A stretch of 64,000 bases of DNA from Octopus vulgaris (GCA_951406725.2 OX597830.1:24428001-24492000), one strand, 5' to 3'. Positions 3,589 to 34,574 are shown, numbered from the stretch's first letter. A program made the numbers and translations. Notes: generated by a model not told the origin, from the letters alone.

Positions 3589-3628
3589 CCAGACTGATGA
3601 CGAGCAAGACTCAGAAACATGTCTCTGG
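3589..3628 (+). ncRNA. Minimal type I hammerhead ribozyme
   Basis: CCAGA-CTGATGA-cGAG caaga CTCa-GAAA-CATG-TC^-TCTGG. Helix I is CCAGA/TCTGG, helix III is the palindrome ACATGT, cleavage triplet GUC (cut after 3623). A C-A mismatch closes helix II. Confidence 0.75.
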
Positions 3629-3780
3629 GTGCAGACTTAGGTGGATGGGGGTGCTTGTATCCCCCTTTCAAACATAAGGACACAGGAAATGTGTCAAGGC
3701 CGACAGGAAGCGTTGATGCTTCCTAGGGCTAAATAGCAATGGTGTGATTCCCTTTATGGGACTGTCATGTTAAGTTGAAG

Positions 3781-4024
3781 TATATATATATATATATATA
3801 TATATATATATATATATATATATATATATATATATATTTATTTATATACATATATTTATATACATATATTTATATACATATATGTATATATATATATATA
3901 TATATATGTATATATATATATATATATATATATATATAGTGAGTTTATATATATATATATATACGTATATATATATATATATATGTGTGTGTGTGTGTGT
4001 GTGTGTGTGTGTGTGTGTGTGTGT
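3781..4024. repeat. (TA)n/(TG)n compound microsatellite
   Basis: Direct reading. Confidence 0.97.
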
Positions 4025-4089
4025 ACTACTAAACTCAGGTCTCGACACACAAAGAGGATGTTCTTGAAGCCGGGGATTTTGAACTTACG

Positions 4090-4569
4090 GAGACAATATT
4101 TACATATCGATTAAACTGAACCGTAACTAATCTGCACATCCTCCGAAAATTCACGGATGGTAACTCGATAATTTCCCTTCAGAGTTACACGCACATCTGC
4201 TTTTTTTATGCGGCTCTCCCAGAACGTTCGTCAGTATCGACATTTTTTCGGCCATCATGGGAACTTCTGAACCACTCGTACACTTGTGCGCGACTCATAC
4301 ACTCCTCTCCGTACACTTTCTGCAACTTAGCTTAAGCCTCTGAGCAGGTATCGCTATAACAACTTTCCCTGTCATGGTCAATGCGACGATCACATGCTAC
4401 ACCCGTTCCTTTCAAGCACTGCTGTAAACAGCGGAAGTAAGCTAGAACGTTAAAATTAAGTGCCCATGCATAACAGAGTTCAAAGTCAATTTTTGCCAAG
4501 CGACTTAACTATGTGTGCTTTGGCTTCGTTACTATGGCAACATTCCAGGTACTTATTGATCAGATCTCG
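4090..4569 (-). mobile_element. Decayed mariner element: 5' TIR plus N-terminal transposase remnant
   Basis: Minus strand begins TA|CGAGATCTGATCAATAAGT and translates to KLQKVYGEECMSRAQVYEWFR...DERSGR (mariner HTH region). Confidence 0.75.
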
Positions 4570-6390
4570 TATGTGATACAGAGATGCATAGGTAACATGT
4601 CCTGTATATTATATATAATACAGAGGACAGCCGAAAGGTTAAATGAATTAAACTGTAGAACAGGTTTATGTAAGGTAAAAATAATAATGTGGAGGCCATG
4701 TTTTCTTTGAGCTTTCCGTAGTAAAAGTTCGACGGTTATTTTCCAACGTAAGGACGGTGATAGCTAGAACCATGTGCAGGCATGGGTATGTGGGTAAGAG
4801 GTCCGCTTTGCAGCCACGTAGTTTTGCGTTCGGCCCCACTGCACGGCATCTGGCTTTGTGAGTGAATTTGTTAGACAGAGAGAGACTGTGTGGGAGTCTG
4901 TCCTGTATATGCACTTGTGCGTGCGTAAGTGTGTGCGTGCGTGTGTGTGTGTGAGTGTGTGTGTGTGTGTGTGTGTGTGTGTGTGTGTGTGTGTGTGTGT
5001 GTGTGTGTGCGTGCGTGTGTATGTGTGTTTAGTGTGTGTGAGAAAACTTATTCTATCGAGTTCTTTTGCCGAACCGTTAAGTTACGGGGATGTAAAAAAC
5101 CAAAATCATTTGTTAAGCGATGGAGTGGGAACAAATGCAAGCACACACTCCCACTTGCGTGTAGTAAGTAAGAGTGTGTGTGTGTGTGTTTGTACTTGCC
5201 CACACGCATGTGGCAATTGATGTTGGTTTGTTTACGTCTCTTAACGTAACGGTTCGCCAAAAAGAGGGGGAGAGAGGCGGGGAGAGGTGGGGAGAGAGGA
5301 AGAGAGAGAGAGAGTAAGTACCAAACTGCCAAGAATGTAAGTACTAAGATAGATTTTTTCCACTAAACCTATCATGGCAGTGCCACAGAATGAACGCAGT
5401 CCAATGACTGAAGCAGTTAGAGGAATACAAGAATAAAAGAATAAGGAAATCATGTAAATAATTCCTACACCACTGAGGCATCGAACTCATTTTAAAACGG
5501 TTAAATAAAATGTACTTTTAGAAGGGGTTTCTGGGATTAACTGGTGTGTAATGTTTAAATTTATCATGAATAATTTTAGACCATATATGTGTGTATGTTG
5601 CAGGGTGAGTGTGTGTATGTGTGTGTGTGTGTGAGAGAGAGAGAGAGGGGGGGCACACGTGTTTTTGTGCATGAGCATGTGTGTGTGTGTGTGTGTGTTT
5701 TGTGAATGTGTGTGACCGTTTGTGTGTCAGCGCTCCTGTCTTTGTGTTTGACCCCACACTGTTTGACAAATCCGGTGTTGTATTGTTTACGTCCCCGTAA
5801 CTTAGCGGCTCCGAAGAACGAACCGATATAATAAGTACTAGACTTTAACAAAAGCGAGTACTAGACAGAACCATAGCTAGGGGGAAGGCAATGCTGCCGG
5901 TTCGGCCCGGGCGACGCTTTAACGGGACAGCACTTTGGGGTTTGTTGTACACGCCTGTGTATGCTTGGGTCCCCCGGAGCTGGAGATGCAAACTCAAGTG
6001 GTGCACAATGCGGTACACACTCTAACTATTCCACTCTACCCCCGGACTAATATATTATAAACATATAATATATTAGTCATATCTTACCATCTTACCATCT
6101 TCAAACGAAAAATCCTTGATACTATTTCTGGGAATGCTTTGTTGATAGGTATGGATCATCAGAAGAGACCAAGGGATTAGAAGAAGAAAAAAACATTATA
6201 ATATGATTAAGCTCGTGAGAGATACTCTACATCTTCGCTTGGGTTGATGGAAATAATAATCACACAAGGCTCAGAATCAAATCTCACCATTTTTTTTAAA
6301 TGGCATGTTTTTGACAACGTAGTTTTAGTTATAAGAAAGAATAAGCCAGGTTGTTCATAGTACAAACACCTGGAATCTAATATATTTGAT

Positions 6391-31475: not shown

Positions 31476-32455
31476 CTAGGTGTGTGTGTGTGTGCGTGTG
31501 TGTGTGTGTGTGTGTGCGTGTGTATGTGTGTGTGTGTGTACATACACACATATATATAATTGTTCTTTGTATCGTCTACAGAGATATCCGGAACGTATAT
31601 TTGCATATCTATTTGTAACACATCTAAACAAGGTGCCACGCAGTGGGATTGAACCACAACCTTTGAGGTTGGCAAGCAAGCCTCTTACTACACAGCCACT
31701 CCTGCACTTATTATCAGCTATTTTAGAAATAATCATTAAATTTTAGTATTCTCAGGAATAGTCACGGTTACAACGCTTCTGAAAAGAAACCTGTTTGATT
31801 AGCACCAGAGTGGATCTGTCATTAAGAAGAAAGGAACACCGTGCAAACAAAATTTTCAGTTAAAATATTCTTAGACACACACACATACACACACACACAC
31901 ACACACACACACACACACACACACACACAAATACATACACACATACAGAACACAGAGAGTCGATATTTTCTAACGGAAATCATTAACTCCGCTTATTTCC
32001 TGTCCACCATTACTGATTATTCTCGATAAAACCATTTCCTCTTTTTCTTCCCCTTTGAAAGGCGTGTTCCTTCTTCTCTGTTCCCATCCATCATGACAAA
32101 GGATATCTATCCGAAACATCGATATCGCTTGCTTTAATCAACAGCACAATATATTTGCTTTTTAAACCACTTCTTTGTTTATTTTGGGTTTTCGGTATTG
32201 TTCTTCAACTGCTTTTACTCATGAACCATTCACGATATATTTATTGATTGCGCTGAGTAAGACGGAAACCAAGTTACAGATATTGGCTTTCGTTGACTAG
32301 TCCTGCGAGTTTACATTTGGAAGAAAGAAGAAATATCTGGTTTTAAATATTCCATCAATCTGTCTATTTGTCTTCTCGTCTGTATGTATGTGTGTATATA
32401 TATATATATATATATATATATATATATATATACACACACATTACATATACATATA

Positions 32456-32900
32456 CAGATGTGGCTGTGGGGTAAGTAGCTTGCTTACCAACCACATGAT
32501 TCTGTGTTCAGTCCCACTGCGTGGCACATTGGGCAAGTGTCTTCTACTATTGCCACGGGCCGACCAAAGTCCTGTGAGTAGGTTTGTTAGACGGACACTG
32601 AAAGAAGCCTGTCGTACATATATATATATATATATATATATATATATATATATATATATATATATATATATATATATTATATATATATATGTTTGTATGT
32701 GAGTGCATTTGTCCCGCACCATCACTTGACAACTGATGTTGGTGTGGTTACGTTCCCGTAACTTAGCGGATCGGCAAAAGAAACCGATAGAATAAGTACA
32801 AGGCTTACGAAGAATAAGTCCTGGGTCGATTTGTTCGACTAAAGGCGGTGCTCCAGCATGACCACAGTCAAATTACTGAAACAAATAAAAGAATAAAAGA
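32456..32900 (+). mobile_element. SINE family A
   Basis: Collinear with 11034-11515. Confidence 0.88.
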
Positions 32901-33450
32901 ATATATATATGCATATATGTGTGTTTGTGTGTGTGTATGTATATGTATAGATGTGTGTGTGTGTGTGTGTGTGAATGTGTGTGTGTGTGTGTGTGTGTGT
33001 GTGTGTGTGTGTGAATGCAAGAAATCATTGGGGCGAATTCTGACCGAAAATATTTCGTTCTGCTAACAATACAGACAAACAAGTTATTAAAATTAAGTAC
33101 CAGGGAGAGAGGAGGGGGTGAGATAGAATAATCTTCTAATCTCTCAGATTTGTCTTTTTTCTATCAGTCATTAGACTGCGGCCATGTTGGAGCATTGAAT
33201 CTCCAGCACTTATTCAATTTCTTTTTTATTAAGCTTGGTATTCATTCCATCCGTTTCCTTTTACCAAGCTGCTAAGTTAAGGGGACATAAACACACCAAC
33301 GCTAGTTGTGAAGCAGTGGTGACGGACAAACACAGACACAGACACACACACACACACACACACACACATACACACACACGCACACACACACACACAAGCA
33401 CACACACACATACATACATACATACATACACACATATATATATATATATA

Positions 33451-33551
33451 TATATTTAAACACATAAGGAATCCACTTGTAGGAATTCTACACGCTAGAA
33501 ACAACACCGTGTAGAATTCTTATAAGTGGATTCCTTATGTGTTTAAATATA
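33451..33551. repeat. 44-bp inverted repeat with a 13-nt spacer
   Basis: 33451-33494 pairs with 33508-33551; two mismatches. Confidence 0.9.
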
Positions 33552-34574
33552 CACTATATCCTATGACTAATATATAGTCATTTTGACTAAATCTTTACAC
33601 ATTAGACCTCTGGAAAGGTAAATTTTAATTTATTTCCATTTCCCTTTGATAAGATTATATATATATATATATATATATTATTTCTATTTGGGTATTTATG
33701 GAATTCAATATTTTTTACTACCTTCCATATATTATCTTCTAGAAGATATATATATATATATATATATATATATATATATATATATATAACAATTTGATAA
33801 ATAAAACATTTGCATACATACATACATATATGTACACACCTACATCTATTTGTATATATACATGCATATATGAGTAGAGGACACCACAAATAAACGTAGA
33901 ACACAACGAGAAACGAAAACATAAAATCAAACAAGGAAACGGACTTTTTTTGAGAACGAAAAAACAGAGTACAGGACAAACAATACAAAGAATATTCCCC
34001 TTCATCAGCTGCCCCTGTTTCGACTCATATATATATACATAAACGACGGGCCCCCTTTCAGTCTCTGTCTACCAAATCCACTCACAAGGCTTTTCTCGGA
34101 CCGAAGCTATAGTAGAAGACACTTGCCTAAGGTGCCACGCTGTGGAACTGAACTCGGAACGATGTGGTTGGGATGAAAGGTTCTTACCACACAGCTACGA
34201 CACACAAAAGGCCAATATACACAAATTACCTGAAAATATCTTCTAGTTAACTAACCAGAAAACTTAAGCTGAGAAAACTTAATACTGAGATAATGATATT
34301 AACGGTTTCAAATTTTGGCACAGGGCCAGCAATTTTAGGGCTATGAATTTAGTCATTTCGTTGACCCCAATACTTCATTAATATGTTATTATTTTATCGA
34401 TTCCAAATTTATGAAAGGCAAAGATGACCTTAGCGGGATTTGAACTCAAAATGTAAAAGACTCGGAGCAAACACCGCAATTTATATTTGCAACGCTTTAA
34501 TGATTCTCCCTCTCCCTCTCTCTCTCTCTCACACTCCCTCTCTCTCTCTCTCTCTCTCTCTCTCTCTGTAATAA

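Follow-up and report, generated by a model that had tools for sequence, protein, structure and literature searches.

We have identified eight hammerhead motifs, intact, decayed or broken, in a 64,000-nucleotide stretch of Octopus vulgaris DNA (GCA_951406725.2, OX597830.1:24428001-24492000), which is referred to here as the window and numbered from its first letter. The likely account of them is that a TA-rich stretch has gathered 3' ends, cut short on their 5' side, from no fewer than four or five unrelated families of Penelope-like elements (PLEs), together with one retrozyme-like repeat, and that these families include the Naiad type, with its hammerhead in permuted order. Somewhat more cautiously, we favour the wider view that Naiad PLEs from at least six phyla carry working permuted hammerheads, those of nematodes and a spider being of type CSG and those of ctenophores, cnidarians, an acanthocephalan and octopus being opened between A9 and G10.1 with two extra helices; one unit in the window would then be a copied 3' cleavage product that records cleavage in vivo. 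The window itself is AT-rich (37.6% GC), microsatellite-dense animal DNA containing 100 N in all, with an assembly gap seen as a run of N within 9114-9446. The units that carry the motifs, named below by their core or first position, are the following.

3573-3780, plus strand: segment of an abundant, structured repeat that carries a type I hammerhead of the canonical kind, with helix I at 3588-3629, its core at 3594 and a cut predicted after 3623
13360-13514, plus strand: 155-bp TA-bounded unit, found by descriptor, with a Hydra-type hammerhead at 13372-13409 (core 13376, predicted cut after 13405)
16082-16321, minus strand: Hydra-type unit, found by descriptor, with a perfect hammerhead at 16268-16208 (core 16262, predicted cut after 16214) and a T-rich tail leading into (TA)n
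17186-17395, plus strand: 210-bp TA-bounded unit with a PLE minimal hammerhead at 17257-17291 (core 17261), assigned by descriptor and anatomy
17806-17939, plus strand: downstream half of a Naiad-type permuted hammerhead, assigned by a fragment descriptor and a Naiad-like layout
29529-29736, minus strand: 208-bp TA-bounded unit with a decayed minimal hammerhead at 29654-29619 (core 29650, reading CUGUAGA), assigned by descriptor and kinship to the unit at 17186
32090-32123, plus strand: decayed minimal hammerhead (core 32093) within a T-rich stretch of about 420 bp, found by the minimal-type descriptor
33861-34026, minus strand: 166-bp TA-bounded Naiad-like 3' end (GAAA 34021-34018, CUGAUGA 34008-34002; hereafter 34020), recognised by words common to Octopus Naiads

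A type I descriptor returned four perfect cores over the 64 kb (3594, 13376 and 17261 on the plus strand, 16262 on the minus strand) and, with one mismatch, the minus-strand core 29650. The shuffle control that the preliminary description of this DNA had proposed was run locally: 300 dinucleotide shuffles gave a mean of 0.027 perfect cores and never two or more, while the one-mismatch class, with five observed, had a shuffle mean of 0.93 and a maximum of 4. Four motifs in that description (3589, 13365, 17257 and, on the minus strand, 29619) are thereby confirmed, three of them as perfect (3594, 13376, 17261) and the last as the one-mismatch core 29650; the perfect core 16262 was absent from its list. 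By motif alone 29650 is within chance expectation, and its support is the resemblance to the 17186 unit. The decayed motif reported at 32089 was recovered at 32093, with two core changes and one CpG-type change in helix III, by a minimal-type descriptor that matches only 17261 and 32093 in the window and nothing in 500 shuffles, and that was composed post hoc, once the motif was known. Five motifs lie on the plus and three on the minus strand, with no host gene present to orient them against. A very high genome-wide ribozyme count, as had been proposed, is plausible; all eight motifs fall within the first 34 kb and none within the last 30 kb, so the local density is not to be extrapolated. Pattern scans for relatives elsewhere gave no match to viral contigs in either of two scans. 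Two matches in metagenome contigs, inside bacterial coding regions, and two in prokaryote genomes, bacterial and without a downstream core, were rejected as chance.

The two units at 17806 and 34020 are central to the argument. They had been described as apparently truncated hammerheads (~17815 and, on the minus strand, ~34020), a reading that does not hold in that form: the core halves are reversed, with GAAA 5' of CUGAnGA, and the units are not simply truncated type I motifs. A type II hammerhead was rejected for both, as there is no helix III plus UH between the halves. The 17806 unit opens with the 3' strand of helix I (17806-17811), followed by a 5-nt linker identical to that of the Acropora Naiad, the 3' strand of helix II ending in C, and GAAA (17822-17825); after a further 18 nt come the 5' strand of helix I (17844-17849), CUGAAGA (17850-17856), a T-rich tail and (TA)n. 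It is the sole match of a fragment descriptor, with six Watson-Crick pairs in helix I, a result reached by 1 of 500 shuffles. The unit starts at nucleotide 1.1, within 2 nt of the predicted cleavage site and directly after a TA tract, so its 5' end looks like a copy of a 3' cleavage product. That tract was later entered by a DNA element that lies between the 17186 and 17806 units and is part of neither.

17420-17799, no strand assigned: 380-bp inverted-repeat DNA element in a TA tract, 98.9% identical to 148-527

Both copies of this element lie in TA tracts, and their 98.9% identity points to a recently active DNA transposon family.

The 34020 unit is 5'-truncated inside helix II and has 9 nt between its core halves, where intact forms have 18 or more; it is probably internally deleted and inactive. 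Compared by eye with the Naiad_Obim and Naiad_Ovul ends, it has in common with them an 8-mer and a 14-mer around a 14-nt gap. Both window units combine reversed half-cores in a 3' untranslated region (UTR) with a (TA)n target, as do Naiad_Obim and Naiad_Ovul in the available passages of PMC8557442, in which reversed core halves lie near the 3' end. In the same source Naiads are published as lacking canonical hammerheads, cores outside the descriptors are noted, and Naiad_Ovul carries the flag 'HHR_half_core'; the passages give no fold, whereas here the cores are read as complete permuted hammerheads. The tails of the window units come from families other than the Naiads published there.

Of the 54 published Naiad consensus sequences (PMC8557442, File S5), 38 were inspected by eye over their last 500-600 nt; the names used here presume that file order equals metadata order, which agreed wherever it could be checked. 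In 14 of the 38 ends a complete, non-circularly permuted hammerhead can be drawn, with all core residues, three helices and a cleavable triplet, and in all 14 an additional helix of 5-15 bp connects a strand 3' of helix II with a strand 5' of helix I; the partner strand of this helix lies outside the units at 17806 and 34020. Half of the 14 are of type CSG (six nematode families and one spider). The other seven, from Beroe (helix I of 2 bp only), Clytia-3, Acropora, Morbakka-2, Pomphorhynchus and two near-identical Octopus families, are opened between A9 and G10.1 and run from the 5' strand of helix II through the cleavage block and the GAAA block to CUGAnGA. In these seven the base after A9 joins a short helix with upstream sequence, and a hairpin leads into G10.1. 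Helix sequences vary between families, with G10.1-C11.1 kept. As read from the consensus sequences, the two forms appear to be the same fold opened at different places. No clear case of a canonical type I motif was found by eye among the 38 ends. Those of Clytia-1 and -2, Crassostrea, Saccoglossus and Ptychodera lack the permuted hammerhead and share other conserved words near the 3' end.

The block order, the short linker from helix I to helix II and, as drawn by eye in the Naiad ends, the extra helix between them are those of the permuted types SGC and CSG in the available passages of PMC10085705. The SGC order (cleavage, GAAA, CUGAnGA, with the short linker) is seen from nucleotide 1.1 onwards at 17806 and, by eye, in full in the seven Naiad ends. 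Block C, however, is interrupted: at 17806, at 34020 and in the seven ends the strand after A9 has no direct helix II pairing, and in the seven the helix II partner lies upstream. We therefore call these forms SGC-like and not type SGC. The available passages of PMC10085705 describe a metatranscriptome-led search, with CSG drawn from two similar sequences, and do not concern animal retroelements; block C, which is opened between A9 and G10.1 in the cephalopod and cnidarian Naiads, is assumed there to be unbreakable.

That assumption favours one rival explanation, in which the type I units are PLE relics as we propose, the motifs at 17806 and 34020 are chance occurrences or broken type I hammerheads, and the Naiad fold is non-catalytic, for example a recognition signal for reverse transcriptase (RT). 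GAAA followed by CUGAnGA within 45 nt also occurs seven times in the window, five of them without helix support, and both units are without the upstream half. The count itself (shuffle mean 1.5, seven reached in 1 of 500 shuffles) does not distinguish genuine units from chance ones and carries no weight here. Chance is opposed at 17806 by the perfect helix I at the exact junction and at 34020 by the exact 8- and 14-nt matches to Octopus Naiad ends. A non-catalytic role sits poorly with 14 Naiad ends that keep all catalytic residues and a cleavable triplet on unrelated helix sequences, and CSG and SGC ribozymes cleave in vitro according to the passages available of PMC10085705. We regard this explanation as unlikely.

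Several further points weigh against the permuted reading and the PLE account in general. The Naiad folds were drawn by eye from published consensus sequences, and 24 of the 38 ends show no clear fold (seven unclear, 17 with no such fold in the last 500-600 nt). The window holds the downstream half of the permuted motif only, the fragment descriptor for 17806 was composed post hoc after the motif had been seen, and the tail of 34020 is unlike the published Octopus Naiad tail. TA microhomology with U16.1-A17 of the triplet gives the same junction at 17806; since most split forms are predicted to cleave after U-A, truncation at TA microhomology and cleavage are indistinguishable from one case. 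Rfam listed no hammerhead or twister family among 150 of its 158 window matches, and four unit-sized scans at E<=10 gave no hammerhead family. Finally, no PLE RT or GIY-YIG domain was found in 299 scanned of 538 non-repetitive open reading frames (ORFs) of at least 45 aa, so that none of the units has a PLE ORF attached to it here, as is expected for truncated copies. The RT matches present belong to an L1/Tx1-like ORF2 at 24719-27487 and a short fragment at 49830.

The remaining TA-associated units are of two further kinds. Cores 17261, 29650 and 32093 have CUGAnGA, GAAA and UH in type I order (perfect, one change and two changes, respectively). All three have a nucleotide inserted after A9, an A in 17261, and a G10.1-C11.1 pair; the palindromic helix III is intact in 17261 and one CpG-type change short in the other two. 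With these features, a short helix I and an occurrence as dispersed single copies, they resemble the minimal hammerheads of metazoan PLE pLTRs (pseudo-long terminal repeats) in the available passages of PMC4209133, from which they differ in a helix II of 4 bp, against 7-8 there, and in the absence of a linked ORF from the window. The 17186 and 29736 units align with each other better than in 200 of 200 shuffles. The helices had been described as differing between units, which is true in part: helix II is common to 17261 and 29650.

The 13376 and 16262 motifs are of Hydra type, with a helix III of 4-5 bp closed by a 1-nt loop, a hammerhead near the 3' end and insertion in (TA)n. The helix I and helix III strands of 13376 are, by eye, the same as those in the Hydra-2_aMil row of File S2 of PMC8557442; neither motif matches the Hydra-1_oBim hammerhead row there, which places them in other families. 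Two further copies go with the 16262 unit.

16322-16495, plus strand: inverted, 5'-truncated copy of the tail of the 16262 unit, with an extension of about 90 bp and ending at (TA)n, found as an inverted match
30157-30216, minus strand: 60-bp tail-only copy of the 16262 family, 96.7% identical, ending at (TA)n at nearly the same base, found by identity and comparison of ends

The unit thus meets the inverted copy of its tail head to head (a match of 82 bp at 95%), an arrangement that resembles one noted for Penelope-13_HM in the passages available of PMC8557442. The extension of about 90 bp is present on one side only of the 16082-16495 pair and matches 51724-51860. In all, the family has four tail copies in the window, including those at 30157 and 51724, which both abut TA. 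The combination of 5' truncation, an inverted truncated copy and a one-sided tail was seen in this one family only (16082-16495, 30157-30216, 51724-51860). Insertion of PLEs with 5' truncation and inverted copies is known from the parts of the literature available to us, and Hydra-1_Obim, Naiad_Obim and Naiad_Ovul are already listed with a (TA)n preference in the passages of PMC8557442. Three small TA-adjacent repeats without a hammerhead (30278-30342, 31559-31630 and 30609-30661), 79-82% alike, are possibly tail-only PLE copies.

The tail 3' of the motif is 40-51% T in seven of the eight units, against a background of 31%. TA tracts within 200 bp on both sides flank five of the eight motifs and 14.9% of random unmasked positions in 1-36900 (binomial 0.003), a test in which the units were partly selected for TA flanks and two of them have one tract in common. 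The earlier picture of TA-bounded, T-tailed units of 150-250 bp therefore suits most units, with the exception of 3594 (tail 27% T, no TA within 599 bp upstream) and of 32093, which lies in a stretch of about 420 bp flanked by TA on a single side. The proposal of several Penelope-derived families with a preference for TA tracts has gained support from the unit anatomy, which is that of published PLE ends, from the (TA)n-targeting Hydra and Naiad families of Octopus and from the four tail copies.

The 3594 motif differs from these units. Its layout is that of a canonical, retrozyme-like type I hammerhead; in the present copy helix II has a C.A mismatch at its base, and helix I agrees with the 6 bp of such hammerheads, the more so with the majority letters of the contigs described below. 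The repeat at 3573-3780 folds with a z of -2.33. On its 5' side it adjoins the 3' UTR of an ORF1-only element.

1952-3572, plus strand: decayed ORF1-only element like a long interspersed nuclear element (LINE), with RRM-like and zinc-knuckle parts, delimited by mapping of the predicted protein P0001 and by contig breaks at 3566-3573
about 540-1930: 5'-broken second copy of the ORF1-only LINE-like element
1928-1951, plus strand: first of two 24-bp direct repeats, made up of an A-run and the helix I 5' strand of 3594; its downstream counterpart, 3570-3593, is identical

The N-terminal half of P0001 maps to 2036-2517 and the C-terminal half to 581-977, the element being present twice in tandem. 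The best relative of P0001 is an Octopus vulgaris protein (77% identical); its likeness to RRM and zinc-knuckle proteins offers leads only, with zf-CCHC below the cut-off. The 24-bp repeat is read as the target-site duplication of the ORF1-only insertion. Contigs of four runs with three organism labels were aligned to 1822-3780, and only the depth step and the contig ends were used, as summed depth is not copy number. Depth rises more than 10-fold near 3573 (X1: 1,167-3,557 over the LINE 3' UTR vs 53,149-554,541 over the repeat; single listed contigs have depths of 47-75, X1). From the left, four of four listed contig pieces stop at 3566-3572, and from the right, four of four start at 3573, with no piece bridging the junction among the matches listed. 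Two plus-strand left pieces run on for 567 and 31 unmatched letters, and one right piece has 510 unmatched letters upstream. The depth step and the contig ends indicate that the hammerhead belongs to a separate abundant repeat, interrupted by the LINE-like element. At 3629 and 3635 all four runs have majority letters with which a wobble and a mismatch in the extended helix I become Watson-Crick pairs; this would be expected of a family that conserves the fold. Past 3778, at least 13 contigs of one run carry on into sequence other than TA, so that the 3573 family does not end at the TA tract, and its loose end was not seen to continue in the rest of the window. Three DNA runs, under three organism labels, each include one contig that omits 3601-3669, a copy of the repeat without most of the hammerhead. 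In one run that may be of RNA, contigs cover 3573-3775; this was given no weight as evidence. At about 2546-2943 the ORF1-only element is itself split by another repeat of very high abundance, with a summed contig depth of about 3 million (X1), which includes a short telomere-like run and may be Helentron/HINE-like.

Could all units be monomeric offspring of non-LTR retrozymes, that is, of tandem 150-400-bp repeats with circular RNA, and not ends of coding PLEs? Long helix I, palindromic helix III and an abundant, structured, non-coding repeat liken 3594 to the non-LTR retrozymes in the passages available of PMC7229834, retrozyme monomers are dispersed in other animals, and no PLE ORF was found in the window. 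Unlike those retrozymes, the 3594 repeat has no tandem copies here: the search of the window turned up neither tandem arrays of any unit nor, at 3594, head-to-tail repeats of 150-400 bp, and the copy there is interrupted at both ends. The minimal, Hydra-type and Naiad-type motifs are moreover PLE hallmarks. A retrozyme origin, which had been raised for the whole set, thus fits at most the 3594 unit, and we hold it improbable for the others; according to the available part of a 2026 preprint (10.64898/2026.07.22.740005), retrozymes derive from PLE pLTRs, which makes the difference one of degree.

For the 3594 unit alone, the ORF1-only element might target the hammerhead repeat, cutting at the boundary of helix I and the core, or the hammerhead might be the element's own 3' end. 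The two copies of the element, 81% alike in the 3' UTR, both end in the A-run and the same 20 bases (24 identical), and the duplication ends at the base immediately before C3. The contig pieces that stop or start at the junction speak against this, and insertion of a second copy into the A-tail of an earlier one accounts for the pattern with no need of specificity, which leaves the idea with a small probability. A possible helper of the ORF1-only element is a 5'-truncated L1/Tx1-like ORF2 on the plus strand at 24719-27700, open over 923 aa (RVT_1, E 1.9e-31; zf-RVT).

That the motifs are chance matches in AT-rich repetitive DNA, as the missing Rfam matches, the ordinary folding scores and nine weak two-mismatch type I matches elsewhere in the window might suggest, is highly improbable given four perfect cores against 0.027 expected, the family copies and the clade-specific features, and is already refuted for the perfect-core motifs by the shuffles.

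PLE ends gathered in TA tracts could have arisen as follows. An autonomous element elsewhere would supply RT and a GIY-YIG endonuclease that nicks (TA)n. Reverse transcription would start in the T-rich tail about 85-140 nt 3' of the ribozyme and usually stop early, which would leave units of 60-250 bp between TA tracts, at times with an inverted second copy, the unit shapes being as observed. The 13360, 16262, 17186 and 29736 units keep the whole hammerhead; since such copies run through the cleavage site, their template would have been uncut, or religated or circular, RNA. The 17806 and 34020 units would stem from Naiad-type elements with a 3' UTR folding as a non-circularly permuted hammerhead, in which an extra helix ties helices I and II and two further helices close the gap between A9 and G10.1. 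Because it starts at nucleotide 1.1, the 17806 unit may have been copied from a 3' cleavage product. Most solo copies are presumably inert relics by now.

The folding stability of the motifs is unremarkable (z from -1.06 to +1.36). The active fold lies above the minimum by 4.7 kcal/mol in 17261, 5.7 in 13376, 6.9 in 3594 and 1.0 in 16262; the value of 0 in 29650 concerns a mutated core. With only 1.0 kcal/mol to overcome, 16262 is the best candidate for a copy that might still cut by itself. Solo minimal hammerheads are reported, in the part of the literature available, as inactive in vitro as monomers, with dimers needed and weak activity. The suggestion that the motifs could affect any transcript crossing the region is therefore unsupported: solo minimal motifs are inactive in vitro, the active fold is 4.7-6.9 kcal/mol up in three of five, and no host gene was identified among the 299 ORFs scanned.

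A few other features were noted in the window. A near-perfect palindrome of about 90 bp follows immediately after a TA tract (33456-33655). A 42-bp tandem repeat at 60040-60287 (5.9 copies) stays open on the minus strand, where it reads as a Gly/Pro-rich repeat of 14 residues, and a diverged block related to it lies at 61324-61678. By appearance, 18238-18700 and 39000-39200 are decayed Tc1/mariner-like transposase fragments, with no Pfam match.

Dispersed PLE hammerheads in large numbers have been published (about 9,000 in Xenopus, in the part of the source available), as have 126,247 type I motifs in axolotl and 235 Rfam matches in the giant squid. To this phenomenon, published in 2014 and 2021, the dispersed type I motifs add a further example, of minor importance by itself. 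Interest rests on the putative permuted form, the main support for which is the by-eye reading of published consensus sequences. No report of a permuted hammerhead in Naiads was found by title or abstract in a literature search thin on subscription papers, and the available passages of a 2026 paper cite only the 2023 discovery of permuted hammerheads. The absence of hammerheads from Naiads has served as an argument, in the passages of PMC8557442, that hammerheads may only parasitise PLEs. If true, the permuted Naiad form would do away with the chief exception to a rule, that of PLEs carrying self-cleaving RNA, and it would be a natural hammerhead with its conserved core broken where a break was assumed to be impossible, which may help in designing ribozymes. 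A comparison of insertions beginning at the cleavage site with those running through it would then tell from the genome whether the RNA copied by PLEs is cut, uncut or circular.

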